Virus record (IMG/VR): IMGVR_UViG_3300008459_000008
Span: 32,001-96,000 of that record
Strand: one strand, 5' to 3'
DNA: 64,000 nt
From: a virus
Notes under the pieces: model-generated
What the model was told of the DNA's origin: nothing
The model's database searches: none
Seen by the model: the letters and a program-made list of their open reading frames with translations, nothing else
Position numbers and translations under genes: made by a program
In this document: piece by piece, positions 8,838 to 53,493 of the stretch
How the letters are laid out: each line of letters begins with the position of its first letter
How positions within the stretch are numbered: position 1 is the first letter of the stretch

Positions 8838-9139
8838 TGGATCATTTACTTTTATTTGAGGATTTTATCAACGAAGAGAAATCTTATAAAGGTTCTCACG
8901 GAGGACTAGACAAGTGGTTTAAAGAAAAGTGGGTTGATATTTCCAAAACAAATAAAGATGGTTCACACCCACCTTGTGGTAGATCCGATACTAATAAAGG
9001 TGGATATCCTAAATGTAGAAAAGTAAGAGTAGCTGCTAAAATGTCAAAGAAACAGAAAAAAGCATCAGTAGCTAGAAAAAGAAAAGCTGAGAGTGAAGGA
9101 TCAAAAGGTAGTAGTAGAAAACCAAACTATTCTAAATAA
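8837..9139 (+). CDS. Small basic phage protein (C-terminal half of DUF5872-like family)
   Basis: GLDKWFKEKWVDI...PCGR...YPKCR motif. ATG at 8837 overlaps the previous TAA. Leader MDHLLLFEDFINEE is near-identical to that of the previous gene. Confidence 0.6.
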   Translation: MDHLLLFEDFINEEKSYKGSHGGLDKWFKEKWVDISKTNKDGSHPPCGRSDTNKGGYPKCRKVRVAAKMSKKQKKASVARKRKAESEGSKGSSRKPNYSK

Positions 9140-10254: not shown

Positions 10255-10355
10255 ATAACAATTATATGTTGATATGATTAATTGTTATAAAAAACTAATT
10301 TTTACATTTTGTTTTTTGTGAAAACGATATATAAAAAAAAAGAAAAAATTAAGTA

Positions 10356-15092: not shown

Positions 15093-15148
15093 GGAATTAT
15101 CCTCAAATAAAATTTGAATATATACAAAAAAAACATATCAAATACAAA

Positions 15149-18100
15149 ATGAAAAAGTTTCTGTTCTTTCTAACAAGTTTGATTTTAACGTTGAATTCGT
15201 TTGGTCAAGTGAAATTGAACGTTTGGGACAAAAATCCAAATGTATCTAAAACAATCAATAATATAAAACCGAATAATTTACCAAAAACATTCGAGTCGTT
15301 GACACCGGATGGTGAAAAAACCATCTATGATAGATGGGAAGTTCCAGCTATAACAGTTGTGTCATCTAAAGGTAAGTCATACACAACAAAACCAGTGGCT
15401 TACAAATCAAGAAATGGATTTGGTGTCTTAACCTATTCCAAAAATGGGTGGCAGGGTTTACATTCTGGTAGGAGTGGTAAATTTTACTCAATGACACCTT
15501 CAAAGGTTAATGAGGACACATCGTCATTGAGATCAGTCGAAGAATATTGTGGAGGTGCAGGTTTACAACCAAGTAGCCAAAATATTGATCAAAAAAAAGA
15601 CACAAAAAAGACTCCGTCGGTCGGTAGATTAACTAATAGTGATTTTTATAATCCATTAGTACCAATCAATAAAACTTGTAGTGTTTATGCAGAAATTGCT
15701 TTTGATCTACATACTGCGTTGGGTGGAAATCTAGCTACAACTGAAGATTGGGTTACGAGACTTTTTCTAGGTATATCACAAATCTATTTGAATGAGGGTA
15801 TAACAATATACTTGAATAAAGTTTATGTTTGGGAAGCGTTAGACCCATATGGATATACCACACAAACAGGTACACAGGATGTAGTTAGAAGTAATGTACT
15901 CAATCTATTCGGTGGAAAAATTTTAAATAATCTTCCAACCAATCCAAATTCAAACTTTAAACATTTACTTACTAATGCTACTTATGGGGGAGTTGCTTAC
16001 TACGGACCATTCACACCATCAGATGGATACACTCCCGCAAGCGATTTATTCGGTCCGACCAGTAGAGTAGGTCTATCTAGTATGAGTAACAAACTAGAGA
16101 TAGCATCAACACCAACAGATTTAAGTGTTTACAACGATAGAAGATGGTGTTTACTTGTAGTTGCTCATGAGTTAGGTCATAATTTTGGTTCAAGACACAC
16201 ACAGTGGTGTGGTTGGAAAAGTGATGTTGGTACACTAATTGGTAGACTAGACTCTTGTACAAATGGTGAAACTTCAAATCCACTAGGACCTAATTGTGGA
16301 GCAACTAGCTACCCATCATATAAACCGACCATAATGAGTTATTGTCAGTTCCATCAGAATGCTCCTGCTTTTTCACAATTTTTATCCAATGGTTTTGGAA
16401 AGTATCCTAGATTTAGTATAAGGACTGGATTAGCCAATTCATCAGACATACCTTATACAAATGCTTCGATACCAACACTTACCACAACCCCAATAGTTAC
16501 CTATACCGCTACAACTGCTACATCGGGTGGTAACATCACAAGTGATGGTGGTGCTAATGTAACCTCGAGAGGGGTGTGTTGGTCAACATCACCAAACCCG
16601 ACAATATCGGGATCAAGAACTCTTGATGGTTCCTTTTCAGGGAGTTTTACTAGTAACATCACAGGTCTTTTAGGTGGAATAACTTATTACGTCAGAGCTT
16701 ATGCAACCAATCAAGCCGGAACTGCTTATGGTAATGAAGTTAGTTTCACTACATCAGTACCCCTTGTACCAACACTATCGTCAACAACCGCCGCAACATC
16801 TATCACCAATAACAGCGCAACATCAGGTGGTAATGTGAGTGCAAATGGTGGTGGTTCAATTACCGCTAGGGGTGTTTGTTGGTCAACTTCAACAACCCCA
16901 ACAATATCAAATTCGAGAACTAATGATGCTGTAGGTACAGGTACAGGCTCTTTCACAAGTAGTTTGACGGGTCTATCAGCTGGTACAACATACTATGTAA
17001 GATCTTACGCAACAAACAGTGCAGGAACGGGTTATGGACCACAGATAACATTCTCAACATTTTCCGCATCTTCAATACTTATAAACACTACTGCTCTTAC
17101 GGGATTAGCTCCCAAAAACGTGACGACGGGTGGAACAATTACTTCAGACGGAGGTTCTGCAGTGACAGCAAGAGGGGTGTGTTGGTCAACAACAAGCCCA
17201 CCAACTATATCGAATAGTAAGGTCAATACTGGAACAGGTACAGGAACGTATACAAGTACGGTTAGTGGATTATCTCCATCTACGACATATTATTTGAGGT
17301 CATTTGCTACAAACTCTAGTGGTACAACATATGGTAATGAACTCTCCTTTACAACCACATCTGTTCCAACATTCATTAATGGTACTCCTAGTTATGTCTC
17401 ACAAACATCTATAAAAACCAATTACACTATAAGTTTTCCAAATCAATCGTTTTCCAGCCATGCTTTGGGTGCTTCAACGACAAACCCACCGGATTCCTAT
17501 AATCTGAATTCATCATCTTATACTTTTAATTCTGTATCAGGAACATACCAATCACTTCTCGGTAGAAAATCGACTTCACAAGGTCTTCAACCTTCAACGA
17601 CATATTTTATTAGACCTATAGCAACAGACATATATGATAATTTCTATTACGGACCAATAACACAAGCTACTACGCTTGCTCCTTCTCTACCTGTCTGTAC
17701 TACGTATGTTGCAACTGAAGTTAGTACCCCGACTACAAATGCATCGACCGCTAAATTGAGTGGTAAAGTTACATCAATAGGTGGGGCTATCACAGAAAGA
17801 GGTTTTTGTTATTCTACAACACAAAATCCAACCACATCAAATAGTAAAGTTACTACAACAACTTGTTCATCGGATGATGATTGTTTATTATCATTTACAA
17901 ACACAGTGGCTAATTTTACTCCTGGTACTACCTACTATGTAAGATCCTACGCGATAAATCCAAGTGGTGTTGGTTATGGGAATCAAGTATCATTCACAAC
18001 ACCGATTTATGTCTATCAAGGACCACCAATAGTCGTTATTGACTCAATCAGAAACATCTCAACTGTTGGTGCTAAACTTTATGGTCGAGTGACAAACAGA

Positions 18101-21100
18101 GGGGGTTCTGATTGTGTATTGAGTAGTGGATGTAGAGGTGTAGTTATAAGTGCAGTCACAAATAGTCCATCGAGTGGATGTGGAGTAGATGCAAACTTTG
18201 ATCCTATATGTTGGTCATTTGTTGAAACTCCAAATGTTCAAAGTATAACAGGTGCTTTTGAAGTGGATTTCCAGGCAGGCAATCAATTGATGAAAGCAAA
18301 TACAACTTATTATGTTAGGGCATACGCCACTAATTTTTTCGCAAATAACCAAAACAATTACGGATACTCCGCAACAAGTACATTTAAAACATTATTAACT
18401 GGAACAACACCCCTACTTTATACCAACACTACTGTGAGTATCACAACCACGAGCGCAACAAGTGGTGGATTTATAACTTCACAGGGTGGTGCAAGTGTCA
18501 CTCAAAAGGGAGTAGTGTGGTCTACATCTCCAAATCCAACCACATCACTTTCTACAAAAACTTCTAATGGAACAGGCACTGCAGCTTATTCAAGTAATAT
18601 GACAGGTCTCACACCTAATACTTTATACTATGTAAGAGCATACGCTGTAAATAGTTTTGGAACATCTTATGGTCCTCAAGTACAATTCACTACAAATGCG
18701 AGTGCCGGACTAGCCACATTAACAACTACATCAGTCACAAATTTATCTACAACATCGGTGACATCAGGTGGTAACATTACAAACAGTGGTGGTACAAATG
18801 TTACTGCAAGAGGCGTATGTTACTCCACATCAACTAACCCAACAATAACTAACGGCACAGTTGTCGCGAGTGGTTCTGGTACAGGATCGTTCACAACAAA
18901 TATCACTGGATTGATTCAAGGTAATACTTATTTTTTAAGGGCTTTTGCTACAAATACTTCCGGTACAAGTTATGGTAATCAAGTACAAATCACTACACTA
19001 ACACTACCATCAATAACCACTACCGTCGCAAGTAATGTAACCAGCACAACAGTAATTACTGGTGGTAATGTAACATCGGATGGTGGTTCGACTATTACGG
19101 AAAGAGGTGTCTGTTATGAAACAACACAGAACCCAACTACAGGAAATTTTAAACTAGTATCAACTGGCACGACAGGTACGTTTACATCAAACATAACTGA
19201 CTTGACACCAGGCACAACTTACTATGTAAGGGCATACGCTATAAATTCTGTAGGAACTCAATACGGAACTCAAATAAGTTTTACTACCACCGCAGCACAA
19301 ACAGTACCCACTGTGACAACAACTAATCCAACATCTATCACAACTAACACGGTAAGTAGTGGTGGTACTGTTAGTTCGGATGGTAATTCCACGGTTTCAT
19401 CAAGAGGTGTTGTTTGGTCAACATCTTCGGGTCCAACAATCAATCTTACAACTAAAACGGTTAATGGTAGTGGAACTGGTAGTTTCACAAGTTCAGTTGG
19501 AGGTCTTTTACCGGGTGTACTTTACTACATAAGAGCTTATGCTACAAATTCAATTGGTACATCTTATGGTTCAGAATTCACATTCACCACTTTAACAACT
19601 ACACCCACATTATCTTCTACCATTACAGCATCAAATATAACTCAGACCTCAGCAATCTCAGGAGGAAACGTTACAAGTGATGGTGGGATAACAATTACTG
19701 AAAGGGGGGTATGTTGGTCAACATCAAGTAATCCGACTGTTAGTCTAAGTACAAAAACAATAGATGGATCTGGTGTTGGTAGTTTTGTTAGCGATCTCAC
19801 AGGATTATCTGCGAGTACTACTTATTATGTTAGAGCTTACGCTACTAATTCAAATGGTACTAGTTATGGAACACAAATATCATTTACTACTTTATCATCA
19901 ACTACGGTTCCTACTGTCACAACCACAACCGCCTCATCAATTACATTAACATCGGCCGTATCAGGTGGTAATGTGACTTCGGACGGAGGTACTGTTGTGA
20001 CTGTGAGGGGGGTAGTTTGGTCTACATCTCCTTCACCGACAGTATCTTTAACAACTAAAACTCAAGATGGTACAGGAATTGGTACGTTTACAAGCTCTAT
20101 GACCGGTTTAACCGCGTCAACAATTTACTATTATAGAGCATATGCGACTAACTCTCAAGGGACATCATATGGTAATCAACTATCATTTACCACCACTGCA
20201 AACTTACCTGTTGTGACAACAACAAACGTAAGTTCCGTCACACTCACAGGTGCTGTTTCTGGTGGTAACGTAACATCAACTGGTGGAGCAACAGTCACAG
20301 CAAGAGGGGTATGTTGGTCAACATCACCTAATCCTACAATATTGAACTCAAAGACAACTGATGGAAGTGGGACTGGTACATTTACAAGTACTATCTCTAA
20401 TTTATCACAAAATACAACCTATTATGTCAGAGCATACGCAACTAACTCATCTGGTACCGCATATGGGACAGAATTACAATTCATCACATCAAACACATCT
20501 TTACCAACTGTTAATACAACATCTGTCACATCTATAGATTTCACAAGTGCTATATCTGGAGGTAATGTGGTATCAGACGGTAATTCAACAGTGACATCGA
20601 GAGGTGTGGTGTGGTCTGAAACACAAAATCCAACCCTTAGTAATTCATTTACAGTAGATGATAATGGTACTGGTACATTTACAAGTAATCTCACAAATTT
20701 GACTGCCGGCGTCACATATTATGTAAGAGCGTATGCAACAAATTCCTTAGGTACATCATATGGAAACCAAGTATCATTCGCAACAATACCTGGTCAAGCA
20801 CCAGAGGTATCAACAAACATTATAAATAACGTCACATCCACTAATGCTGAAGTTGTTTATAGTATAAACTCAATAGGTGGTGGAACATTATCATTAAAAG
20901 GTATTTGTTATTCTACATCTCCGAACCCCACAACATCTAATCAGAAGGTAGAAGAAGTCTGTGCAATTGAGACCCCATGTGAGATCGGTCAATATACAAT
21001 TACTTTCATAAATCCATTGTCTCCAAATGTGACTTATTATGTAAGAGCCTACGCAACAAGTGAATTTGGAACCTCATATGGAGAAGAACTTTCCTTCACA

Positions 21101-22360
21101 ACATTGATTAATTTCCCAACACTCACAACCACATCTATATCTGAAATAACATCAACTACAGCTAGTAGTGGTGGTACTATAGTAGACGTGGGTGGTGGGT
21201 CTATAAGTGCGAAGGGAGTTTGTTGGTCAACTTCATCAAATCCTACACTTAATAATTCATTCACAACTGATGGAAGTGGTCCGAATTTCTTCTCTAGTCA
21301 AATTACAGGATTATTACCTGGTGTGTTATACTATGTAAGATCATACGCCACTAATCAAACTGGTACAAATTATGGAAATCAAGTTACGTTCACTACAATA
21401 TCAGTGTCTGTACCTACACTAACAACAAATAGCGTCACTTCAATTACTAACTCATCTGCTATATCCGGTGGAAATATCACATCAGATGGGGGGTCTACTA
21501 TAACAGCAAGGGGAGTTGTTTATTCCACATCACAAAATCCAACCTTATCAAATAATAGAACGTTTGACGGTTCGGGAATTGGTTCGTTTAGTTCTTCTAT
21601 AACTGGTTTATCACCTGGTGTTACCTATTATGTTAGATCATATGCGACCACATCGGGTGGTACAGGATACGGACAACAAAATATTTTTACAACTTCTGGT
21701 TCAATTCCAACTGTATCTACCACCACAATTACAAACATTAGCTCGTCAGGTGCGACGTCTGGTGGTAATGTAACATCGTCTGGCGGATCTTCAATCACTT
21801 CTAGAGGGGTTGTTTGGTCAACATCTCCAAATCCAACTGTATCTTTATCAACCAAGACATCAAATGGAACAGGAACAGGAATATTTACAAGTACAATAAT
21901 CGGATTATCCCCATCAACACTTTATTATGTTAGATCTTACGCTACAAACAGTACAGGTACTGCATATGGTACAGAGTTAACATTTACAACTTCATTGAGT
22001 GGTGGTGGAAGTTGTGCGATTGGTGGTCTAACAGTTACAAGAGTTAATAATGCTTGGAACTTTACATTTAACATAAATCCAAATTGTACAAGTTATACGG
22101 TGAACGTGTGTAGATATTCAAATACTAACCCAGCAATACCACCAACTGCAGGTCAAACACCAGTAGCATGTGCGGTTAGAAATAACATGACTAGTTATGT
22201 ACCAACTTCTTCGGAAATAAGCGCTGGTGTTATAACAAGAGTGATGAGTCCACCACCAGCCAATACCGGTGTGTGGTACAGTGTTGACGTAACTTGTAAT
22301 GGTACTTGTACAGGTACCAAAACTACTAGGTCTGCATATTTCTATAATCCAATCCCATAA
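15149..22360 (+). CDS. Secreted-type M12B-like metalloprotease with 18 FN3-like repeats (paralog 2)
   Basis: Signal peptide ending SFG|Q; HELGHNFGSRH; IMSY; 18 YYVRxYAxN-type repeats; shared C-terminal domain. Confidence 0.85.
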   Translation: MKKFLFFLTSLILTLNSFGQVKLNVWDKNPNVSKTINNIKPNNLPKTFESLTPDGEKTIYDRWEVPAITVVSSKGKSYTTKPVAYKSRNGFGVLTYSKNGWQGLHSGRSGKFYSMTPSKVNEDTSSLRSVEEYCGGAGLQPSSQNIDQKKDTKKTPSVGRLTNSDFYNPLVPINKTCSVYAEIAFDLHTALGGNLATTEDWVTRLFLGISQIYLNEGITIYLNKVYVWEALDPYGYTTQTGTQDVVRSNVLNLFGGKILNNLPTNPNSNFKHLLTNATYGGVAYYGPFTPSDGYTPASDLFGPTSRVGLSSMSNKLEIASTPTDLSVYNDRRWCLLVVAHELGHNFGSRHTQWCGWKSDVGTLIGRLDSCTNGETSNPLGPNCGATSYPSYKPTIMSYCQFHQNAPAFSQFLSNGFGKYPRFSIRTGLANSSDIPYTNASIPTLTTTPIVTYTATTATSGGNITSDGGANVTSRGVCWSTSPNPTISGSRTLDGSFSGSFTSNITGLLGGITYYVRAYATNQAGTAYGNEVSFTTSVPLVPTLSSTTAATSITNNSATSGGNVSANGGGSITARGVCWSTSTTPTISNSRTNDAVGTGTGSFTSSLTGLSAGTTYYVRSYATNSAGTGYGPQITFSTFSASSILINTTALTGLAPKNVTTGGTITSDGGSAVTARGVCWSTTSPPTISNSKVNTGTGTGTYTSTVSGLSPSTTYYLRSFATNSSGTTYGNELSFTTTSVPTFINGTPSYVSQTSIKTNYTISFPNQSFSSHALGASTTNPPDSYNLNSSSYTFNSVSGTYQSLLGRKSTSQGLQPSTTYFIRPIATDIYDNFYYGPITQATTLAPSLPVCTTYVATEVSTPTTNASTAKLSGKVTSIGGAITERGFCYSTTQNPTTSNSKVTTTTCSSDDDCLLSFTNTVANFTPGTTYYVRSYAINPSGVGYGNQVSFTTPIYVYQGPPIVVIDSIRNISTVGAKLYGRVTNRGGSDCVLSSGCRGVVISAVTNSPSSGCGVDANFDPICWSFVETPNVQSITGAFEVDFQAGNQLMKANTTYYVRAYATNFFANNQNNYGYSATSTFKTLLTGTTPLLYTNTTVSITTTSATSGGFITSQGGASVTQKGVVWSTSPNPTTSLSTKTSNGTGTAAYSSNMTGLTPNTLYYVRAYAVNSFGTSYGPQVQFTTNASAGLATLTTTSVTNLSTTSVTSGGNITNSGGTNVTARGVCYSTSTNPTITNGTVVASGSGTGSFTTNITGLIQGNTYFLRAFATNTSGTSYGNQVQITTLTLPSITTTVASNVTSTTVITGGNVTSDGGSTITERGVCYETTQNPTTGNFKLVSTGTTGTFTSNITDLTPGTTYYVRAYAINSVGTQYGTQISFTTTAAQTVPTVTTTNPTSITTNTVSSGGTVSSDGNSTVSSRGVVWSTSSGPTINLTTKTVNGSGTGSFTSSVGGLLPGVLYYIRAYATNSIGTSYGSEFTFTTLTTTPTLSSTITASNITQTSAISGGNVTSDGGITITERGVCWSTSSNPTVSLSTKTIDGSGVGSFVSDLTGLSASTTYYVRAYATNSNGTSYGTQISFTTLSSTTVPTVTTTTASSITLTSAVSGGNVTSDGGTVVTVRGVVWSTSPSPTVSLTTKTQDGTGIGTFTSSMTGLTASTIYYYRAYATNSQGTSYGNQLSFTTTANLPVVTTTNVSSVTLTGAVSGGNVTSTGGATVTARGVCWSTSPNPTILNSKTTDGSGTGTFTSTISNLSQNTTYYVRAYATNSSGTAYGTELQFITSNTSLPTVNTTSVTSIDFTSAISGGNVVSDGNSTVTSRGVVWSETQNPTLSNSFTVDDNGTGTFTSNLTNLTAGVTYYVRAYATNSLGTSYGNQVSFATIPGQAPEVSTNIINNVTSTNAEVVYSINSIGGGTLSLKGICYSTSPNPTTSNQKVEEVCAIETPCEIGQYTITFINPLSPNVTYYVRAYATSEFGTSYGEELSFTTLINFPTLTTTSISEITSTTASSGGTIVDVGGGSISAKGVCWSTSSNPTLNNSFTTDGSGPNFFSSQITGLLPGVLYYVRSYATNQTGTNYGNQVTFTTISVSVPTLTTNSVTSITNSSAISGGNITSDGGSTITARGVVYSTSQNPTLSNNRTFDGSGIGSFSSSITGLSPGVTYYVRSYATTSGGTGYGQQNIFTTSGSIPTVSTTTITNISSSGATSGGNVTSSGGSSITSRGVVWSTSPNPTVSLSTKTSNGTGTGIFTSTIIGLSPSTLYYVRSYATNSTGTAYGTELTFTTSLSGGGSCAIGGLTVTRVNNAWNFTFNINPNCTSYTVNVCRYSNTNPAIPPTAGQTPVACAVRNNMTSYVPTSSEISAGVITRVMSPPPANTGVWYSVDVTCNGTCTGTKTTRSAYFYNPIP

Positions 22361-22375
22361 AAAAACTAAAATTGA

Positions 22376-25300
22376 ATGAAAAAGTTTCTTCTACTAATTC
22401 TATTGACACTAACTTCCGTTCTGTCCTTTGGGCAGACGGAAGTTGATATTTGGAAAAAATCCAACAAAAAAATATTTTCTCAAAGAAAATTTACATTTCC
22501 AAAAACATTTGTTTCCAAATCACCATCAGGTAAACAATTGACTTACCAACGTGTGGAACATCCATATATCAAGATAGAAACATCTAGTGGTAAGAAATGG
22601 ACAAAGAAACCAATTATTTATCAATCTACTTCAGATTTTGGTGTAATAACATATGACGGTAAAAATTGGAGTGGTATACATACAGAGGATGGATACAATG
22701 TAAGTAACTTGACGAAAGAAAAGGTTACTAATGTCAAAATGGATGCTGAAAAATTCAGTTTTGGTGAAGGAGATGTTTTACTCGCGCCCACAAAATCAAA
22801 TAAAAAGATAGGAAGGTCAATCCAAAACAATCCAAATTTTTATGATCCTTACATCAGAATTAATAAAACTTGTGGAGTTTATGTGGAAGTAACAAATGAT
22901 TTATATAAATTTTGGGGTTCAGATACTGGTAGAGTAACACAGTATGTTACAACTATACTAACAAATGTTATAGCTCTATATGACAGAGAGGGTATAAATG
23001 TCACATTGAATAAAATTTTTGTTTGGGACACACCTGATCCTTATGGAAACCCATTCGATAATACACAGTATCTAAATCAATTTACAGATAACATCAACAA
23101 AAATATACCAACTACACCAGAATCTCATTTTAAACACTTATTACACAATAAGAATTTGGGTGGTATAGCTTGGATAAATGGTGAATCAGATGGATACATC
23201 ACATCTGCAAATCTTGATCCATACTATACCTGTGCGGTCACAGGAATTGGTTCAAATATAGTAGTTAATTCTAATGTCACTTATTCTTGGCCAGTAATGT
23301 GTTTCACACATGAAATGGGACACAATCTTGGTTCAAAACATACTCATTGGTGTGGATGGAAAAATGAATCCAATCAAGCCATAGGTAGAATTGACAGTTG
23401 TTACAGAGGAGAAAGCACAGATGGGCCAGATAATTGCACGTCATCTACTTATACAGTAGTTAAATCAAACAACAGAGGCTCTGTAATGAGTTATTGTCAT
23501 CTGAATGGTGCCATAAGTTTCACAACTGGATTTGGTAGATTACCAAGATATTCAATAAGATCTAATCTAAATGATGCACCAGAGGTGCCATTTGACACAC
23601 CACAAGTTCCAACAGTAACTATTGATACTGGTACTCAAAAAACAGCTACTTCTGTTTTAATGACTGGAAATATTGTAATGACTGGAGAAACTATAATTCA
23701 AGAAAGAGGTTTCGTGTGGACAAATTCACAAATCATAATGCCTACATTGAATTTGACAACTAAAATTGCGGTCGGCTCAGGTAGTGGAACATTTCAATCA
23801 CAAATTACAACATTAACTGCAGGAGGACGTTTTTGGTTTAGGGCATATGCGAAAAATGCTACTGGAGTTTACTATAGTGATACAGTAAGGGTACAATTGG
23901 TCTCAACGTCTGTACCAAGTCTGACGACAAATCCTGTAACTCTAATTACAAATATATCGGCTCAAACTGGTGGCACATACATATCGATTGGTAATATTTC
24001 AATTCAAGAAAGAGGTATAGTGTACAGCACTTCCAATCAACTTCCTACCGTAGATGACACTAAAGTGATCACACCATCACCAAATAACACAAACTTCGTT
24101 CAGAATTTGACGGGTCTAACTCCCAACACCACTTATTACATAAGGGCTTTTGCTAGAAATAGTCCGTCAATTTTTTCTTACGGAAATGTACAAACTTTTC
24201 AAACTTTACCAAATGAGTCGGTATCTTTTGGAGTACCTTTAGCTACCGTCAATAGTAGTACACAAATAACCCCTAGTGTTTTTATCACATCTACTGGTAA
24301 TGGTGGGGTCATATCTGAAAGAGGTTTCTACATAGGAACTACACCAAATCCTGAAAATAACATACTTAATAAAAGAGTTGCGGTTTTGGGACAAGCCACT
24401 ACTATGGCATTAGCTATAATAAATCTAACACCCAATACACTTTATTATATCAAAGGTTTTGCGACCACTCAATTTGGTACTTTTTATACACCCGAATTCA
24501 CATCCACTACACTTAGGAGTATACTAGTGATGGATGAAGTTAGTGGAATAGAAGCTACTAAAGCTACGTTCAAATATACTATTGGTCCAACTACATCTAT
24601 CATACCATCATCAGGTGTTTTGTTATCAACCAACATAACACCAACTAGAGCAAACAGTCAGTTCTTTTTTCAATCGACATATGTTGGACAAGGACAAGGC
24701 ACAATTGTTGGACAAGACCTACTTCCAAATACGACTTACTATGCTAGAGGGGTAATACCATTTACTTCTGGTGATTTCTTTTCAACTAATATACTACAGT
24801 TTCAAACTACGGGAGTTGTTGGTACTCCATCGGTTAGTACTTTGGGATCACCCACAAAAACAAAAAATTCGATTGTAGTTAGAGGTGAAGTTGTGTCAAC
24901 TGGATCATCACCTGTATTTAACAGGGGAATTTGTTATTCAACCGCACCAAATCCTACTATAAATAATTCAGTTATTGTATCAGGTCAGGGGATTGGTCAA
25001 TATATTGTAACTATAAACAATTTAGTACCTAGTACAATATATTATATTAGAGCGTATGCTACCAACAAGTCCGGCACTTCTTATGGTTCAGAAATTAATA
25101 TTTCAACCAGTGGTGATATCCCAACAATCATAACAAACTCAATCAACAACATTTCATTAACCACTGCTAATGGAGGTGGTGAAATAACTCTTTCGGGTGG
25201 ACGTGTTGTTACATCTAGGGGTGTAATTTGGTCAACCAATCCCAATCCAACAATAAATTTGTCTACAAAAACAGTAGATGGTAGCGGAATTGGCATATTC

Positions 25301-26392
25301 ACAAGTGCAATCACTGGATTGGTACAGAATACGAAATATTATGTCAGAGCTTATGCCATAAATGATAATGGGGTTGGATATGGTAATGAAATTAATTTCA
25401 CTACTTTGCCTAGTCCAACTACAGCAAATGTAATAACAAATATTGTCACAAATATTTTACCAACATCAGCGACATCCGGTGGTAATGTTACTTATGATGG
25501 TGGAACACCTGTGGTATCCAAGGGGATTTGTTGGTCGACTTCTCAGAACCCAACAATCGACCTTACCACAAAAACTATGGACGGTAGTGGATTGGGTCCC
25601 TTCGTTAGTCAGATATCCAACTTGACCCTCGGCAACACTTACTATGTAAGGGCTTACGCTGTTAATTCTACTGGAACTAGTTATGGTGTACAGTATTCAT
25701 TTACAACTTCGTTAGGCATCCCAATCGTTTTGACTAATCCGGTAAGTGGGATTACAATAACATCAGCGAGTGTTGGAGGGAATGTAACTTCTTCTGGAAA
25801 TGCACCTGTAACTCAGAGAGGAATTTGTTGGTCAATAAATCAGAACCCAACAACAAGTGATAATATAGTACCAAGTGGAAACGGAACTGGAGTTTTTTCC
25901 GGAAATATATTAGGACTATCCTCCTCCACAACATATTTTATCAGAGCTTATGCTACAAACTCTTTGGGAACTTCCTATGGATCACAGATTTCATTTACCA
26001 CTTCACCACAATCTGGAGGTACTTGTCAAATATCTGGACTAACATCCTATCTAAATCAAACGAACAAATGGGAATTTAATTACAATATAAATTTAAAATG
26101 TGCTACATATTCTGTAAATGTGTGTAGGTATAATTACACAGATCCTAATAGTCAACCACCTTCAAATTTACAACCAACAAGTTGTGGAGTAAGAAATAGC
26201 ATGAATGCTTATGTACCAACAATCCAAGAAACAAATAATGGGTACATCCAAAAAGAAATGATACCTCAACCGACGGCTTCGACAAAATCTGGTTTTGGTG
26301 GATATTGGTACAGCATAGATGTCAGATGTTCATCACAAAATTGTTTGGGATCAAATTTGACTAAATACTATTTTTATGTACCAGGTATGTAA
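22376..26392 (+). CDS. Secreted-type M12B-like metalloprotease with 8 FN3-like repeats (paralog 3)
   Basis: Signal peptide ending SFG|Q; HEMGHNLGSKH; VMSY; 8 repeats; shared C-terminal domain. Confidence 0.85.
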   Translation: MKKFLLLILLTLTSVLSFGQTEVDIWKKSNKKIFSQRKFTFPKTFVSKSPSGKQLTYQRVEHPYIKIETSSGKKWTKKPIIYQSTSDFGVITYDGKNWSGIHTEDGYNVSNLTKEKVTNVKMDAEKFSFGEGDVLLAPTKSNKKIGRSIQNNPNFYDPYIRINKTCGVYVEVTNDLYKFWGSDTGRVTQYVTTILTNVIALYDREGINVTLNKIFVWDTPDPYGNPFDNTQYLNQFTDNINKNIPTTPESHFKHLLHNKNLGGIAWINGESDGYITSANLDPYYTCAVTGIGSNIVVNSNVTYSWPVMCFTHEMGHNLGSKHTHWCGWKNESNQAIGRIDSCYRGESTDGPDNCTSSTYTVVKSNNRGSVMSYCHLNGAISFTTGFGRLPRYSIRSNLNDAPEVPFDTPQVPTVTIDTGTQKTATSVLMTGNIVMTGETIIQERGFVWTNSQIIMPTLNLTTKIAVGSGSGTFQSQITTLTAGGRFWFRAYAKNATGVYYSDTVRVQLVSTSVPSLTTNPVTLITNISAQTGGTYISIGNISIQERGIVYSTSNQLPTVDDTKVITPSPNNTNFVQNLTGLTPNTTYYIRAFARNSPSIFSYGNVQTFQTLPNESVSFGVPLATVNSSTQITPSVFITSTGNGGVISERGFYIGTTPNPENNILNKRVAVLGQATTMALAIINLTPNTLYYIKGFATTQFGTFYTPEFTSTTLRSILVMDEVSGIEATKATFKYTIGPTTSIIPSSGVLLSTNITPTRANSQFFFQSTYVGQGQGTIVGQDLLPNTTYYARGVIPFTSGDFFSTNILQFQTTGVVGTPSVSTLGSPTKTKNSIVVRGEVVSTGSSPVFNRGICYSTAPNPTINNSVIVSGQGIGQYIVTINNLVPSTIYYIRAYATNKSGTSYGSEINISTSGDIPTIITNSINNISLTTANGGGEITLSGGRVVTSRGVIWSTNPNPTINLSTKTVDGSGIGIFTSAITGLVQNTKYYVRAYAINDNGVGYGNEINFTTLPSPTTANVITNIVTNILPTSATSGGNVTYDGGTPVVSKGICWSTSQNPTIDLTTKTMDGSGLGPFVSQISNLTLGNTYYVRAYAVNSTGTSYGVQYSFTTSLGIPIVLTNPVSGITITSASVGGNVTSSGNAPVTQRGICWSINQNPTTSDNIVPSGNGTGVFSGNILGLSSSTTYFIRAYATNSLGTSYGSQISFTTSPQSGGTCQISGLTSYLNQTNKWEFNYNINLKCATYSVNVCRYNYTDPNSQPPSNLQPTSCGVRNSMNAYVPTIQETNNGYIQKEMIPQPTASTKSGFGGYWYSIDVRCSSQNCLGSNLTKYYFYVPGM

Positions 26393-26494
26393 TAAAAGTT
26401 ATTTTATCAAAAGAATATATAAATAGATTAATAGGAATAAAAACCGAAATAATATATAATTAAACAAAAAGATTTAAAAAAATATAAATAAGTT

Positions 26495-38439: not shown

Positions 38440-38934
38440 ATGAACGCTTATACCCAAGAGGAAATTGATAGGATTAATAAAGTCAAAGAAACTAATGATA
38501 AATTAGAAGAATATTTCCTTCAACGAAGAGAAGAATGGAATAATAATCTTTCACCACTTTTTGATGTTATAAAAATGAGTTTAACTACCGAAAATTCTCA
38601 GAAAATTTTGGAAGTTCAATCACTTGCATTAAGCTATAGACAAGCTTTGAACGAACAAATTTCATTCTTTTTAAATAAAAGAAGTAAAGAAGAAGTAAAA
38701 AATAAAAAAATCAGACAAGATAAGTTTGTTTTCTATGCAACCGGATTTGGATTGAAAACAAACACTGGTGAAAAATCAATTTTGATAGATGCTCACCTTG
38801 CAGAAAATGATAGAAATATATTACTAATCGAAAACCATATTGAGTTTTTGAGAAACAGTTCAAAAAATCTTGAAAGTCTTGGATATACTATCAAGAACAT
38901 TATTGAATTGATGAATTATTTAGGAGGACGATAA
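38440..38934 (+). CDS. UvsY-like recombination mediator
   Basis: Helical 164 aa with C-terminal IEFL...LESLGYTIKNIIELMNYLGG resembling the T4-like UvsY tail. Confidence 0.5.
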   Translation: MNAYTQEEIDRINKVKETNDKLEEYFLQRREEWNNNLSPLFDVIKMSLTTENSQKILEVQSLALSYRQALNEQISFFLNKRSKEEVKNKKIRQDKFVFYATGFGLKTNTGEKSILIDAHLAENDRNILLIENHIEFLRNSSKNLESLGYTIKNIIELMNYLGGR

Positions 38935-40062
38935 GTGTTCTAAGGCTTTTTCAACCAAATCTCTATAACCTTGATAATCATTATCATTGAGTATGTCATT
39001 TAACATAGCCTTCAACAACGTCCTTCTACTTTCAAAACCAGGATCATAAATGTCTCCACTGGTCGAGGTTAACTCTATACAATTCTTACCTGGTGCATTA
39101 TGCAATTTACCGTTTTTTTCATTCAATAAAGCTAATGTATCCACAAATGGATAAAAGGCAAAATTCCACTTAGTTAATTGAACATTTATGTGTGACAAAT
39201 AAACCTTGTCATTGTAATTGAAAAATAGTGATTCCAAACCATCTGAAACATTTTTATTTTTCATCACCCAACCTTTATCTTTTGCGTAATTTTTGAACTT
39301 TATCATATCACTGTCATTTGCACAATATATCCTATCCATAAAATATTCAGCAGGACATCCATCTACCTTTTTATCAAGTTTCCATATAAGAGCTCTACCT
39401 AAAACTTTATTATCTTGATTTACATAAGCTAATAATTGACATACTTCTGGATTCTCTTTATAAATTCCGAAGTATCTCTGACAAACTGTATACCTCATAC
39501 AAGAAGCACCCAACTGACCTTTATCAGGATAAGCATAATTCATAAAATCATAATAGTAAGGAATTTCATCACCACTTATCAATTTGAATTCATTAGAAAC
39601 TACAACAAATTCTGATTTGTATAAATTTACAAAATCTTCATAATCCTTCTGAGTTAATCCTTGAATATGATCTTCGACAAAAGACAAATCTAAATCTTCA
39701 ATTACATTGGGGTCACTTAGTAATGCTTGAGCAAATCTACCAATCCTAATTTGGCCTCTGCCTGAAACATCATAATATTTTGAATTATCTTCATCCCACT
39801 GCATGGGTGTTCTTTTAGCTCTTTGATCGGATAAAAATGAAACCATTTCTGGTTCATTTGTAACATCAATCCAGTTTTGTGGAAGGTCTTTTACAATATA
39901 ATATTCTTCACCAAAAAGAACATATAATATTTCAGCTACTTTACTTTTATCTCTTATCTTATTTAATCTTGATAAAAATTCAGGTGATGCATTCAAATCG
40001 TTTTCTAGTATCAAAGAAATGACTTGTTTTTCAAGAATAAACCCATCAAAATTATTTATCAT
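38920..40062 (-). CDS. Uncharacterised phage protein, SCM/RALxW/MDRIY family (paralog A)
   Basis: GQLGASCMRY, GRALIW, FMDRIY, YPFVDT; ATG at 40062 after ATATATA; leader MINNFDGFILE. Confidence 0.6.
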   Translation of the reverse strand: MINNFDGFILEKQVISLILENDLNASPEFLSRLNKIRDKSKVAEILYVLFGEEYYIVKDLPQNWIDVTNEPEMVSFLSDQRAKRTPMQWDEDNSKYYDVSGRGQIRIGRFAQALLSDPNVIEDLDLSFVEDHIQGLTQKDYEDFVNLYKSEFVVVSNEFKLISGDEIPYYYDFMNYAYPDKGQLGASCMRYTVCQRYFGIYKENPEVCQLLAYVNQDNKVLGRALIWKLDKKVDGCPAEYFMDRIYCANDSDMIKFKNYAKDKGWVMKNKNVSDGLESLFFNYNDKVYLSHINVQLTKWNFAFYPFVDTLALLNEKNGKLHNAPGKNCIELTSTSGDIYDPGFESRRTLLKAMLNDILNDNDYQGYRDLVEKALEHLSSS

Positions 40063-40078
40063 AAGTTTATATATATTT

Positions 40079-40109
40079 TTTGTTATATTGAATAATATTC
40101 TTACATTTG
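40079..40109 (+). promoter_or_regulatory. Bacteroidota-type housekeeping promoter
   Basis: TTTG (40079-82), 19-nt spacer, TACATTTG (40102-09). Confidence 0.6.
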
Positions 40110-40112
40110 TAT

Positions 40113-41042
40113 ATGGTAAAATCAATCTTTCTGATAGTTATATTATTTGTCACCACAAATTCAAATTGTCAAACTTTTATCCAACCCAACAGCCACTGGC
40201 ACCGTATGTGGGACTTCGTATCTTGTCCAGGTTTAGGGTATGATCACCACAGGTATGTAGGAGACACTCTATTCAACAATAATTCCTATTCCAAAATAGA
40301 AAATAAACAATATTCTGTATACTTGGACCAAATGAATGGGACACAAAATTATTATATTCATCAAAAAAAATCAACTTACTTGAGACAAAGCTTTGACACA
40401 ATTTTTATTTTTGATGAAGAGTATTCTGAGGATAGATTTGGGTGGTCTCAAAACCCAAGTGTTGGTGAATTATATTATCTTGGTAAGGTCAAAAATTTTA
40501 TCTCTCAAAACGATATTAAAGTTTATTCGAGGGTAGATTCTATTTCAACCGAAATCATACAAGGGCAGGAAACTAAATGGATTTATTCAACTACGAATTT
40601 AGATTCTTTAGGCAATCCAATAAATTATTATACCACAAAATTTAATTATATTATCAAATTAAACACTTTGATGGGTCCAATAACTGAATGGATAATTCCA
40701 AGTACAACTTCTCTTTCTTGTTTTGAGTCATCAATCACCACCAAGATAAATTATTCTGGTCTAGATTGTAATGCTGGACTTGATTTTGATTGTGAGACTA
40801 CAACTCATAGTCACGAAAATAAACTGAATGATATAAAAATATATCCAAATCCGATTATTGATTATTTTACAATCACGAATTGCAAAAATAAAATTATTAG
40901 TTTGAGAAACACTGATGGTAAACAATTATCTAAGACAACGATTATATCTGACAATCATAAGATAGATCTGAAATTTTATCCCAATGGAACGTATTTTATT
41001 TTTTTGGATGAAAAATTTTTACAAAGAATTGTAAAAATTTAA
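40113..41042 (+). CDS. Secreted protein with T9SS type A C-terminal sorting domain
   Basis: Signal peptide ending before Q; VGDT..N...YSK..YLRQ N-terminal region; C-terminal IKIYPNP..DYFTI..NTDGK..IDL..YPNGTYFI..RIVKI. Confidence 0.8.
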   Translation: MVKSIFLIVILFVTTNSNCQTFIQPNSHWHRMWDFVSCPGLGYDHHRYVGDTLFNNNSYSKIENKQYSVYLDQMNGTQNYYIHQKKSTYLRQSFDTIFIFDEEYSEDRFGWSQNPSVGELYYLGKVKNFISQNDIKVYSRVDSISTEIIQGQETKWIYSTTNLDSLGNPINYYTTKFNYIIKLNTLMGPITEWIIPSTTSLSCFESSITTKINYSGLDCNAGLDFDCETTTHSHENKLNDIKIYPNPIIDYFTITNCKNKIISLRNTDGKQLSKTTIISDNHKIDLKFYPNGTYFIFLDEKFLQRIVKI

Positions 41043-41067
41043 ACTTTGGTTATTCTACTTATTATAA
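41040..41067 (+). promoter_or_regulatory. TAAAC-N18-TATAA promoter-like motif upstream of the putative ncRNA
   Basis: The same bipartite motif recurs upstream of 7 other genes in the window. Confidence 0.55.
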
Positions 41068-41072
41068 CTCTT

Positions 41073-41226
41073 GTCGATTGAAGTAGTGTAATATAGTTCT
41101 CGGAAACTAACGGAATATAAAAAGCACAGACCGCCTGACCCTGGCAATAGATCTTACATCATGCTTGTAAGAACGGTAAAGTTGAGGTGAATGCCGTTAA
41201 TCCTCAGAATTCAATTGAGCCCCGAC
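41073..41226 (+). ncRNA. Putative structured non-coding RNA of unknown family, with H-type pseudoknot
   Basis: GC-richer intergenic stretch with paired ends (GTCG/CGAC, ATTGAA/TTCAAT), internal hairpins and the pseudoknot ACGGTA/TGCCGT + TGAGG/CCTCA; flanked by promoter motif and terminator. Confidence 0.6.
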
Positions 41227-41231
41227 CCTCT

Positions 41232-41263
41232 AAAAAAGTCCGAATTTTTTCGGACTTTTTTTT
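41232..41263 (+). terminator. Rho-independent terminator
   Basis: AAAAAAGTCCGAA-tttt-TTCGGACTTTTTTTT. Confidence 0.85.
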
Positions 41264-41291
41264 GTTTTAGTATAAAATTGTTATATCTTTG
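41261..41291 (+). promoter_or_regulatory. Bacteroidota-type housekeeping promoter
   Basis: TTTG (41261-64), 19-nt spacer, TATCTTTG (41284-91). Confidence 0.7.
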
Positions 41292-41313
41292 TAACACTAA
41301 ATCAAAATACAAT

Positions 41314-42189
41314 ATGTCAACATTCCTATTCTCTCGTGGTTATAAAAAGTATAACAAAGTAGATCTGTTCAAAAAAATTGATGCAGTTGAAATCTTTCGT
41401 GAAGGCAGCCAAATCATCACTAAATATTTCAATCGTGTAGTGAATAATACACCGGTTTCTGACCGTTATGAGGTATTTGACATTCGTTCCTTTATGAAAT
41501 CTAAAATTGAATTGTTGGAGGCAAATTTCAACATCAGTTTCTATAATTTCCGTATGAAAGGAGGTATCCAAGAACTCATTCTTCTCTCAGATGAAGTAGA
41601 AATCGCTGGTTCTAATTACTATAAAGCTTTCTTTATTCTTAATTCATCAGACAAATCTCGTCGTCTCAATATGAACCTCGGTCTTTATCAAGCTGATAAT
41701 GGTGTTTACCTTGTCAATTCCATTAAGAATTTTTCACTTACTACCAAACACCTCAAGGGTATTACCGATAAAGCTGAAGTTGCTTCCACACACATTGATG
41801 TTGAAACTTTTGACGAACAAATCCAATCCATCCGTTCATTGGTAGGGGAAAGAGTGATGATGTCCCAAGTTAGAAATATCATCATCGATAAAGACCAAAA
41901 GGTAAACCATAATAAGTTTGACGCACTTAAGAATGTGCTACGTTGGAACTATTCTAAAAGTTTTACTAAAGAACAAATTGGTATAATTTTAACACCTAGT
42001 GAGAAATTAACTATCAATACATCTAATGACTTCTCTATTGATGCTTTCACTGTGTTTCTAGCTTATATGAACGTGTTCCGAAACCAAGATTCGTATGTTG
42101 TTAGGAAAGAAACTGAGAAGATTTTGAAAATCACACAGTGCTTCATTCGTGAAGAAAAGTTAGCACAGCTTTTGGATATGTTGGATTAA
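41314..42189 (+). CDS. DUF932/DUF945-like early phage protein
   Basis: VSDRYEVFD, FILNSSDKS...LGLYQ, TTKHL pattern. True start is likely ATG 41314; the track start at 41191 runs through the RNA and terminator. Confidence 0.55.
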   Translation: MSTFLFSRGYKKYNKVDLFKKIDAVEIFREGSQIITKYFNRVVNNTPVSDRYEVFDIRSFMKSKIELLEANFNISFYNFRMKGGIQELILLSDEVEIAGSNYYKAFFILNSSDKSRRLNMNLGLYQADNGVYLVNSIKNFSLTTKHLKGITDKAEVASTHIDVETFDEQIQSIRSLVGERVMMSQVRNIIIDKDQKVNHNKFDALKNVLRWNYSKSFTKEQIGIILTPSEKLTINTSNDFSIDAFTVFLAYMNVFRNQDSYVVRKETEKILKITQCFIREEKLAQLLDMLD

Positions 42190-42210: not shown

Positions 42211-43458
42211 ATGGCATACACAAGAAAAACATCTGATATAATTACCTCACACGATTTGGATTATATCCTTCATCAAATGAAGGATAAATCTGAAGTTGCT
42301 AGACTACTTATTAAGCAAAGACACCCGATTGAAAATTTAGTTGATGATCACATTAATTATATTTCGATATCAAGTTCTGATTGTACTAAAATTTCTTACT
42401 TAACATCAGAGAGAATTGATGCCCTATTATCCAATGGTGAAGATCTTTGGACATCTAGTAAAAGATTTCATATCAAACCAGGTGCCTTTATTGGTAAAAT
42501 ATTTAAAAATATCCCACCACGCGAGGTAGAATTATTTTCTACTTTATTCAGAAATATTCAAACTAAAATAGAAATGGAATTCCGTGTGGTGAGTGGATCG
42601 TATATTTACCCCTACTATCATCATTCATCCTACCTAAATGAAAATGGTTCATTAGGTGCCTCTTGTATGAAGTATGACCAATGTCAAGACTACTTAGACT
42701 TATATACACTGAATTCCAATACGGTTAGTCTTTTAGTTCTGTTGAATAATAGAAATAAACTCATAGGCAGAGCCTTACTCTGGTCAATTGGAGACACTAA
42801 AATTATGGATAGAATTTATACAGTCAATGATGAAAACTATCAATACCACTTTAAAAAGTGGGCTGATGATAACGGTTATTGGTATAAAAAAGAACAAAGA
42901 TGGAATAACACACTTTATTTCGAGCAGAAGGGAAAAGTAGACTATAAAGAACTTGAAATACAACTTAAGAATTTTGATTTTGAATATTACCCATATATGG
43001 ATACTTTCAAATTTGTCGATTTGAAGAATGGTGTATTATACAACTATCAGCCAAATGGTGTAAAATTCAATACTATTTCCTCAGCAGAAGGTAAAGTTCA
43101 ATCAGATAGTATTTATTCAATGTGTGAAAAAACAAAAACTTTCCATTCAAGTGATTATATTAATTATGTACCAAATAGAGGAATAAGAGTTTGTGCTGAT
43201 TTGACTGTTTATTCGGATATCTATGACATTTATATTCTGAGAGAAGATGCTAGATATGATCAAGATTTGGGTGATTGGATTTATCAAGATGACGATTTAA
43301 ACAATGATATTTTAATTGAAAAGAAAAAATCTGAAGTTAAGTCAAACTCACGTTGGGTAGATTTATCAAACGTTCCAATTGAATATCATCTGATTTCGGA
43401 GGAAGACAACGAAGAGGTTCCTCCTCCACCACCACAAGAGGAATATTCACCCTTTTAA
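42211..43458 (+). CDS. Uncharacterised phage protein, SCM/RALxW/MDRIY family (paralog B)
   Basis: GSLGASCMKY, GRALLW, IMDRIY, YPYMDTF. Confidence 0.6.
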   Translation: MAYTRKTSDIITSHDLDYILHQMKDKSEVARLLIKQRHPIENLVDDHINYISISSSDCTKISYLTSERIDALLSNGEDLWTSSKRFHIKPGAFIGKIFKNIPPREVELFSTLFRNIQTKIEMEFRVVSGSYIYPYYHHSSYLNENGSLGASCMKYDQCQDYLDLYTLNSNTVSLLVLLNNRNKLIGRALLWSIGDTKIMDRIYTVNDENYQYHFKKWADDNGYWYKKEQRWNNTLYFEQKGKVDYKELEIQLKNFDFEYYPYMDTFKFVDLKNGVLYNYQPNGVKFNTISSAEGKVQSDSIYSMCEKTKTFHSSDYINYVPNRGIRVCADLTVYSDIYDIYILREDARYDQDLGDWIYQDDDLNNDILIEKKKSEVKSNSRWVDLSNVPIEYHLISEEDNEEVPPPPPQEEYSPF

Positions 43459-43489
43459 ACAAAATTAAAATCCCTCATATAAATTTGAT

Positions 43490-46629: not shown

Positions 46630-47175
46630 ATGAATTGGAACGAATATAAAGAATTATCAGAAAAAACTCTATCTACTGAATTCCACTGCGGTAAACAAGT
46701 AGAAAATTTATTACATGGAGTTATTGGTGTACTAACTGAATTAGAAGAATTGATCGGTTGGAATGATGAAATCAATAAAAAAGAAGAAGTCGCGGATATT
46801 TTTTGGTATATCGCTCTTTTGGATAGAGAATTGGATTTAAATCTTGAAATAAAAAAGTTCGATAAAGGTATCTATCAATTGACAAATGAAACTTTGATAA
46901 TGCAATCATTTAAAACAACTTGTTTACTATTAGATTATCTTAAGAAGAAAATTTATTACAACAAACAAATATCAATTGAAGATTTTTCAACACAAACTTT
47001 AAACCTTTTTGAGACAGTCTGTCTTTTTTGTGAAGCTAATTCAATAGAAATAGAACATATTTTGGATACTAATATATCAAAATTAAAAGCCAGATACGGT
47101 GATAAATTTTCAACAGACAAAGCCATCAACAGGAATTTAGATTTAGAACGGACTATACTTGAACATAGTAAATAA
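46630..47175 (+). CDS. MazG-like nucleotide pyrophosphohydrolase
   Basis: LHGVIGVLTELEEL, EEVADIFWY, NISKLKARYGDKF; ATG at 46630. Confidence 0.8.
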   Translation: MNWNEYKELSEKTLSTEFHCGKQVENLLHGVIGVLTELEELIGWNDEINKKEEVADIFWYIALLDRELDLNLEIKKFDKGIYQLTNETLIMQSFKTTCLLLDYLKKKIYYNKQISIEDFSTQTLNLFETVCLFCEANSIEIEHILDTNISKLKARYGDKFSTDKAINRNLDLERTILEHSK

Positions 47176-47219
47176 ACATACTAAATTCATTAGACTATAA
47201 TAAAAAATAAAAACAATTA

Positions 47220-52914: not shown

Positions 52915-52935
52915 ATATTTATATTGATAAGTTTA

Positions 52936-53493
52936 TTATTGTTTAACTTTGGTGACTTGTGATAATTTTTCTTTATCAAACTGATCGAAACTCATCACCT
53001 TAGACTTTTGTACACTACCTTGATTGGAAGTATAATCTTGTTTCTGTGAGAAAATATTTTTTAAACCCCTCAAAATTTTATTTTTTCTCCTTTTATTTGT
53101 ACCTCTCCTATCAGATAGGGGCGCTGGCAATTTTTGAAAAACTTTTTTCTTACCACCAGGATTATAAGGGACACTTATATCACCTGATCCAACTGTACCA
53201 CCACCAGCGGTAAAAGAAGAACCACTTGTTGAACCTGCATATGCCGAAGGTTGAGCAGAAACCACTGAACCCATACCACCAATCGATGCATTTGCGTATC
53301 CTACACCACCCCCACCAACACCAATACTAGCAGCAGCCGCTGCGCCACCTGGTCCATCTTCCAGTATAGAATTAACATAAAATTCTTCCTCTAAGAGTAT
53401 AAGTTCGGATAATTTATCCACGTTCAATCCCTCATTCAATAGAGTACCACGTAATTCAAATAGATCTTCCAAACTCATTTTATTTTTATTCAT
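52936..53493 (-). CDS. Hypothetical Gly-rich protein, candidate internal head protein
   Basis: Acidic N-terminus with xLE sites, Gly/Ala/Ser tract, basic tail, C-terminal VMSFDQF. Confidence 0.5.
   Translation of the reverse strand: MNKNKMSLEDLFELRGTLLNEGLNVDKLSELILLEEEFYVNSILEDGPGGAAAAASIGVGGGGVGYANASIGGMGSVVSAQPSAYAGSTSGSSFTAGGGTVGSGDISVPYNPGGKKKVFQKLPAPLSDRRGTNKRRKNKILRGLKNIFSQKQDYTSNQGSVQKSKVMSFDQFDKEKLSQVTKVKQ

Follow-up and report, generated by a model that had tools for sequence, protein, structure and literature searches.

Huge phages are known carriers of translation-related genes and transfer RNAs (tRNAs), whereas their other non-coding RNAs are, to our knowledge, almost unexplored. 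Besides tRNA and tRNA-like RNAs (see below), the described RNAs that come closest to the element reported here are the rnaC and rnaD transcripts of phage T4 (species 1 and 2 RNAs), the pRNA of phage phi29, and riboswitches of the SAM-I type. In this work we analyzed a 64-kb stretch of phage DNA (bases 32001-96000 of the 106-kb IMG/VR virus record IMGVR_UViG_3300008459_000008, CheckV completeness 42%; the whole stretch is called the window below), in which a structured RNA gene of about 145 nt lies at 41074-41218 on the + strand; with its terminator the predicted transcript measures about 150-190 nt. An earlier reading of the DNA letters (the original prediction) had placed an unannotated, independently transcribed structured RNA with a pseudoknot in this spacer, and the sequence and coordinates it gave are correct.

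Like the RNA in the window, rnaC and rnaD are stand-alone transcripts (119-139 nt) of unknown function in a T4-type phage, and the window also carries genes of a T4-type myovirus (UvsY-like, SbcD/gp47-like, exonuclease, tail tube, and baseplate wedge). Unlike it, they lie within a tRNA cluster and their stretch has the canonical T-arm sequence GGTTCGAATCC, whereas ARAGORN finds no tRNA genes near the phage RNA. As relatives they were rejected, as they show no detectable similarity to the covariance model of the phage RNA (at most 3.4 bits). phi29 pRNA is also a phage-encoded structured RNA, roughly 120-170 nt in size, with conserved loops on covarying stems, and we know of it only from phi29-like podoviruses with protein-primed genomes. 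The phage RNA has no match to the Rfam pRNA family, and no intermolecular loop-loop covariation as in pRNA is visible in it since its loops are invariant. SAM-I-type riboswitches share with it a four-way junction, invariant unpaired bases, a tertiary pairing (a plausible one in the phage RNA), and a terminator directly downstream. They differ from it in that the phage RNA has no sequence or structure match in Rfam and no antiterminator pairing, and occurs as a single copy per genome, without a recurrent downstream gene and with a separate promoter for the next gene.

Homologs and conservation of the RNA

Comparison of the whole window with Rfam 15 at the gathering thresholds gave 0 matches, and a search at E<=10 brought up nothing beyond chance matches, far under threshold, that were driven by the terminator or covered only a hairpin. 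The RNA is thus outside every known RNA family, as the original prediction had it; it is new in that sense only, and its function may be of a known type. Homologs were collected from lake metagenomes and IMG/VR. The 291-aa protein encoded downstream (c1) led to two relatives in which the intergenic region is 83% identical with compensatory changes visible, and a first covariance model found diverged copies 3-4 kb from the 291-aa gene in two further contigs. A pattern derived from two invariant blocks matched 7 viral and 15 metagenome contigs (22 matches), all of which except L030 were confirmed by the covariance model, and these amount to 17 distinct sequences in about six clades. A second pattern that did not require the block of helix P7 (see below) returned the same 7 viral contigs and added none. 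The copy number is one in each of the two near-complete relatives, G001 (464.6 kb, 98% complete) and G005 (476 kb, 97% complete), and the window genome holds no second copy of the element stretch.

The invariant columns number 59 of 129 in the core across all 17 sequences. Core identity to the divergent clades is 66-72%, as compared to 47-61% for the neighboring protein c1 and its homologs in the same clades. The rise in GC content that had been noted across the element is present (0.37-0.41 vs. 0.24-0.33 in the flanks). The spacer had also been called the largest intergenic gap in the window, which it is not: in a map of open reading frames (ORFs) of at least 100 aa it ranks sixth with 271 nt, the largest gaps being 445, 370, and 328 nt. 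We consider it almost certain that a genuine structured RNA gene under selection is present at this locus.

The sizes of the two near-complete relatives, together with those of the closest named records, which are freshwater megaphages of more than 630 kb (PMC9723777), indicate that the RNA element belongs to a huge phage. The host is probably a member of the Bacteroidota, to which two features point: a type IX secretion C-terminal sorting domain (Por_Secre_tail) in the gene directly upstream of the RNA, and promoters of the Bacteroidota type (TTTG-N19-TAnnTTTG). Outside this group of phages, an exact-pattern scan of 185,579 bacterial and archaeal species genomes returned a single match, a chance one covering only the P4 hairpin, and blastn against 50,697 phage records returned no homolog. 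The covariance model found no match in four more distant megaphages (LR756502, LR745206, LR756504, and LR756500), a search in which the first-look filters may miss weak relatives. As far as these searches reach, the RNA appears to be phage-specific and restricted to a clade of freshwater Bacteroidota phages of about 465-476 kb.

Secondary structure and covariation

Evidence from folding of the single sequence is modest (z = -2.26 against shuffles for the + strand and -0.95 for the - strand), and the case for the structure rests on the comparison of homologs. When the 17 sequences were segmented on their invariant blocks, a long-range helix (P5) that the original prediction had missed was exposed. 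The comparison supports a compact four-way junction, in which P1 closes the two ends, P2 encloses the hairpin P3, P5 encloses the hairpin P4 beyond a large internal loop, and P7 is a hairpin. On the model-realigned alignment (A7) 94.5% of the cells in this fold are paired, as opposed to 29-49% in controls in which the fold was slid along the alignment. Changes on both sides were found in 11 pairs, a number that 1 of 500 shuffles reaches, and the covariation score is 0.295 vs. 0.141 for shuffled and 0.04-0.08 for slid alignments, with none of the 500 shuffles reaching the observed value; these shuffle statistics overstate independence because the 17 sequences fall into about six clades. The covariation check on homologs that had been suggested along with the prediction came out in favor of a conserved, structured RNA. 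The unfitted MAFFT alignment gives the same picture, and on it RNAalifold independently predicts P2, P3, P5, P4, and P7. An all-against-all covariation analysis for extra tertiary pairs was uninformative at about six clades.

The closing helix P1 pairs 41074-41082 (UCGAUUGAA) with 41210-41218 (UUCAAUUGA). It is present in the minimum free energy fold, and RNAduplex finds a P1-like helix adjoining the core in 15 of the 17 homologs; the aligners could not set its register, and its sequences differ (for example GUCAAUUAG/CUAAUUAGAC, AAAAGU/ACUUUU, and AUCUUG/CAAGAU). P2 (GUGU 41086-89 with GCAC 41124-27) is 100% paired and never varies. Its 5' strand stands in a segment that is invariant in the 17 sequences (41084-41091: U-R, GUGU, AA), and its 3' strand is preceded by an invariant A and followed by the invariant single A before P5 (41123-41128). 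The P3 hairpin (41095-41108) consists of AGUU, the loop CUCGGA, and AACU; it is 97% paired, and two pairs of its stem (41095-98/41105-08) have changed on both sides from UA to CG. P5 joins 41129-41134 to 41173-41178 (ACCG 41130-33 with CGGU 41174-77) and is 88% paired, with both-side changes in four of its six pairs (for example CAUCAUU/AAUGAUG in L040 and CACUAC/GUAGUG in L025). The G-U pairs in P5, which occur in 8 of the 17 sequences at one pair, are compatible with the + strand only; since the terminator also fits that strand, the RNA is assigned to it.

P5 leads into a highly conserved internal loop (41135-41151, ...CCCUGGC-AA-UAGA), in which CYCUGGY and UAGA are found in 17/17 sequences and RNAalifold draws an invariant 3-bp CUG/UAG mini-stem that is beyond the reach of covariation. 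The P4 hairpin (41152-41172) has a 7-bp stem (41152-58/41166-72) and the 7-nt loop UCAUGCU (41159-65). It is 97.5% paired; the three outer, variable pairs are each double-changed in 5-7 sequences, and the loop with its three closing pairs is invariant in 17/17. P7 (41183-41206) is formed by UGAGG (41183-87) and CCUCA (41202-06) around a 14-nt loop that contains CCGUU (41194-98). It is 100% paired, with four invariant pairs and a fifth that varies only from U-A to U-G. Covariation is silent on P2 and P7 because both are always paired but essentially invariant. The invariant positions include the P4 loop UCAUGCU, CYCUGGY..UAGA, UR-GUGU-AA, A-GCAC-A, and GUUGAGGU..CCUC.

A pseudoknot between the P7 loop and the junction, AACGG (41109-41113) with CCGUU (41194-41198), is plausible from the alignment. 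It is 85% paired, shows one consistent one-sided change (C to U with G-U pairing kept) and, in L022/L033, a U-G variant, and is compatible with all nested helices including P5. About half of the structure as originally drawn survives in this model, with 76% of its cells paired overall: ATTGAA/TTCAAT is part of P1, TCTTACA/TGTAAGA is P4, and TGAGG/CCTCA is P7. The other half had to be redrawn. The outer pairing GTCG/CGAC (41073-76/41223-26) is formed in only 35% of cells, and the GCC/GGC mini-hairpin shows no double changes, the bases of its 5' side covarying with a different partner, in P5. The H-type pseudoknot that had been proposed keeps its stem 2 (P7) and loses its stem 1, ACGGTA/TGCCGT (41173-78/41192-97), which is 70% paired without any double change, is absent from all divergent clades, and is incompatible with P5, in which 41174-77 pairs with 41130-33 instead. 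Both stem 1 and the mini-hairpin are wrong because their bases belong to P5.

Transcription signals and boundaries

A promoter-like two-box motif precedes the RNA at 41040-41067 (+), with AAACTT at 41041-46, a 16-nt spacer, and TATAAC at about 41062-67; this is the TAAAC-N18-TATAA motif of the original prediction, and its boxes are conserved in the main-clade relatives. In the 11 main-clade sequences the boxes (AAACTY and TAWAAY) keep a constant spacing while the spacer varies freely, and P1 begins 5-6 nt past the second box. We read the two boxes as the footprint of a putative promoter that is not of the host type, and the 5' end of the RNA is predicted at about 41072-41074. The window genome has gained a type IX cargo gene upstream by insertion, and the two boxes are still present. 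The intrinsic terminator (41232-41263, +) has a 13-bp stem (the 13 pairs fall within 41232-41261), a 4-nt loop, and a U-run, and agrees with the earlier description. It stands at the same place in every homolog, with stem sequences that are unrelated among clades and a linker between P1 and the terminator that varies from about 0 to 25 nt.

The prediction that the next gene has a promoter of its own also held: a separate Bacteroidota-type promoter (TTTG-N19-TATCTTTG, 41261-41291, +), which is context and not part of the RNA, precedes the ATG of that gene (41314) and is kept in the main-clade relatives. Independent transcription of the RNA, as originally claimed, is predicted for the clade of the window, in which the RNA is bounded by promoter-like boxes and a terminator of its own, and it is not universal. 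In four divergent clades a same-strand upstream ORF (for a 627-aa SPFH protein, or of 171, 126, and 101 aa) stops within P1 on its 5' side or next to it, which places the RNA in a 3'-untranslated position. L025, L024, and L031 lack visible promoter boxes; an AAAC-N-TATAAA-like motif is retained in L022/L033, and the promoter footprint is also seen in L040. In L025 the 627-aa SPFH/Band-7 protein is encoded at 11562-13445 (-), its end lying within the first helix of the RNA, and a glutamyl/glutaminyl-tRNA synthetase gene is found 0.9 kb downstream of the RNA (9039-10529, -).

The looser motif AAAC-N17-19-TATAA has 16 matches in the window vs. 8.4 expected, several of them just before ORF starts. 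Those at 5-29 nt before a start are 26462-26487, 43457-43482, 47174-47200, 52919-52944 (-), and 22320-22347. This class may represent phage promoters or a start-proximal AT-rich signal. Proteins with sigma-70 region 2 are encoded in the near-complete relatives in frames of 208-267 aa (G001:C1:161122-161325 and 459114-459290; G005:C1:209692-209898), and such phage sigma-70-family proteins are candidate factors for recognizing the AAACTY-N16-TATAAT boxes ahead of the RNA, which are not of the host type.

A small ORF within the RNA (ATG 41161, in the P4 loop) was considered as coding and rejected, as it is not conserved and meets a stop after three codons in L025. The ORF listed at 41191-42189 is an artefact in which an in-frame ATG within the RNA lengthens the frame of the next gene; the real start is at 41314.

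Possible function and resemblance to tRNA

RNAs that combine strong conservation with a well-supported multi-helix fold, a single copy per genome, and no match to a described family have mostly proved to act as ribozymes, as riboswitches, or as the core of a ribonucleoprotein. The functions offered with the original prediction (a decoy, a ribonucleoprotein scaffold, or a ribozyme) all stay candidates. In the explanation that we favor, the RNA would be made from its own two-box promoter and ended by its own terminator in the window phage, in some relatives it would instead come immediately after an upstream ORF, and it would act in trans through its three-dimensional shape as the specific partner (decoy or scaffold) of a protein or small ligand. 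Such a trans-acting, shape-dependent role has, in our judgment, an even chance of being right. Mimicry of tRNA specifically, aimed at a tRNA-recognizing factor of the host or phage, is the foremost of the narrower proposals, and one that we hold with considerable doubt; it was suggested by the junction geometry and the invariant bases, which resemble an expanded tRNA cloverleaf.

The tRNA-like features were read from alignments A6/A7. As in tRNA, the 5' and 3' ends pair to close a four-way junction, an invariant U-R precedes the 4-bp P2 (G-C, U-A, G-C, U-G), AA follows the P2 5' strand, and an invariant A stands before its 3' strand. Exactly one A separates P2 from P5, the connector between P5 and P7 is 4-5 nt long with an invariant final U, and P7 has 5 bp with a G-C closing pair. 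A CGG in the P2 domain is complementary to a CCG in the P7 loop, comparable to the D-loop/T-loop elbow. The bases positionally equivalent to the tRNA core (U8, R9, G10-C25, A14, R15, A21, R26, Y48, and G53-C61) are invariant in the 17 sequences, in a mapping that is post hoc.

Several points weigh against this explanation. The P7 loop of 14-15 nt lacks the T-loop motif UUCRA, no CCA is conserved, a U33-type loop is missing, the P4 loop has C in place of U as its second base, and 1-3 and 2-4 unpaired bases set P1 off from the junction. All three loops are expanded relative to tRNA, with a hairpin in the 'D loop' and a 17-nt internal loop plus a second helix in the 'anticodon arm'. ARAGORN calls no tRNA or transfer-messenger RNA (tmRNA) at default settings and gives only inconsistent low-score calls when relaxed, and no member of the Rfam tRNA clan matches at E<=10. 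The resemblance to tRNA is a post hoc observation. Both the transcript and its ends are predictions, the loop-to-junction pseudoknot shows little covariation, the sequences compared represent no more than the six or so clades mentioned above, and the RNA could act in cis at the 3' end of a message, given that it abuts an upstream ORF in four clades. Compared with described tRNA-like RNAs (the tRNA-like domain of YrlA/bacterial Y RNA, the tRNA-like domain of tmRNA, mascRNA, and viral tRNA-like structures), the phage RNA is not filed as a family member because its loops are expanded, the T-loop, CCA, and U33 features are missing, P1 is offset, and no tool detects it.

Weighing of other explanations

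Antisense regulation or switching of the next gene is less likely than a shape-based role in trans. The sRNA-gene anatomy, with its own promoter-like boxes and terminator and an exposed, invariant 7-nt loop on a covarying stem, is what a base-pairing small RNA would have, and the P4 loop UCAUGCU (complementary to AGCAUGA, which has a start codon in it), or some other invariant single-stranded stretch, could then target a messenger RNA or other RNA of the host. We regard this as unlikely: no conserved complementary site occurs in the three phage genomes G000, G001, and G005, where the 9-nt complement of the invariant loop (AAGCATGAT) is found only at the RNA gene plus one further G001 site, and a regulator that acts through a seed would need neither a rigid fold of several helices nor 59 invariant positions. 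A riboswitch or protein-dependent attenuator acting in cis, in which the junction senses a signal and the adjacent terminator gates read-through into the downstream genes, would account for the aptamer-like architecture, with its junction, its numerous unpaired but invariant bases, and its tertiary contact, and for the terminator that follows P1 in every clade with downstream genes on the same strand; the linkers in L027 and in the window repeat part of the invariant loop (CCUGACCCU / CCCGACCCU). We find it rather improbable all the same, since pairing between the RNA body and either arm of the terminator, which could serve as an alternative to the terminator, is neither significant nor consistent in position (z -1.7 to +1.3), and since there is a single copy per genome of about 470 kb with downstream genes that vary among clades. 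The main clade moreover has a conserved separate promoter between terminator and next gene, and no Rfam riboswitch resembles the RNA.

A still smaller share of probability goes to a self-cleaving or otherwise catalytic RNA that processes its transcript, for example by cutting itself free of the preceding message where, as in some clades, it borders on an ORF. Self-cleaving ribozymes often occur in association with phages, the fold is compact and probably pseudoknotted with highly conserved junction bases, and in four clades the RNA comes immediately after a stop codon. The RNA is, however, larger and more conserved than most small self-cleavers and has no similarity to any Rfam ribozyme family, and in the main clade it opens its own predicted transcript, a position in which cleavage would be of little use. 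A 6S-like RNA mimicking an open promoter would be of comparable size and would also have a closing stem formed by its 5' and 3' ends; we think it very improbable given a four-way junction supported by covariation in place of a long rod with a central bubble, and given the absence of any 6S or 6S-Flavo match in Rfam. Equally little speaks for a chance fold in ordinary spacer or for an element acting at the DNA level (an origin or protein-binding site). The single-sequence z of only -2.26 would allow it, whereas compensatory changes in three helices, strand-specific G-U pairs, a terminator that is conserved as a feature and not as a sequence, and a core far better conserved than the flanking proteins effectively refute it.

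Two further candidates were rejected. A retron msr-msd or the template of a diversity-generating retroelement was dropped because G000, G001, and G005 have no RVT_1 match and there is no second repeat. For a Y RNA, a Ro60-like (TROVE) gene is present in G005 only, far from the RNA (G005:C1:96977-97714, +, in a 484-aa frame), and is absent from G001.

Neighboring genes

In main-clade genomes a divergently transcribed 380-aa gene stands on one side of the RNA and the 291-aa gene on the other. Flanking genes differ from clade to clade, the RNA of G005 is 47 kb away from the c1 homolog and on the opposite strand, and the 380-aa gene belongs to a multi-copy family; for these reasons no neighboring gene qualifies as a consistent partner, and by the gene maps the RNA is tied to none of them. 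Linkage to the downstream 291-aa gene was thus rejected (the distance is 3-4 kb in two clades, in addition to the case of G005), and so was linkage to the flanking 380/415-aa paralogs (a 5-6-copy family). These paralogs, encoded in the window at 38920-40125 (-) and 42211-43458 (+), have no Pfam or PHROG match, and 5-6 copies of the family were counted in each near-complete genome (G001 and G005). The 311-aa Por_Secre_tail protein at 40107-41042 (+) is an insertion specific to the window genome; in the other main-clade relatives the RNA comes directly after the divergent 380-aa gene.

The 291-aa protein c1 (41314-42189, +) matches nothing in Pfam, PHROG, or PDB; its metagenomic homologs number about 350, and ESM Atlas alone puts it among DUF932-like viral clusters (0.97). 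Elsewhere in the window, tandem giant ORFs of 1578, 2403, and 1338 aa extend over 10356-26392 (+). The two that were scanned, of 1578 and 1338 aa, encode reprolysin-like (M12) metalloproteases on runs of fibronectin-III repeats.

Significance for huge phages

The analysis leaves a small (about 150 nt), testable object with a corrected structure, boundaries, and a covariance model. Its conservation is notable, with 59 invariant positions where the neighboring protein has drifted to about 50-60% identity. We tentatively put forward, with a new class of riboswitch or of ribozyme as equally open alternatives, that it may represent a new class of megaphage RNA, an oversized, tRNA-shaped decoy or ligand-binding RNA that would be made early in infection and titrate a host factor. 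If this is true, the host factor could be, for example, a tRNA-targeting defense nuclease, a tRNA-processing or tRNA-modifying enzyme, or a signaling nucleotide, and the RNA would provide the phage with an RNA-based counter-defense through molecular mimicry.

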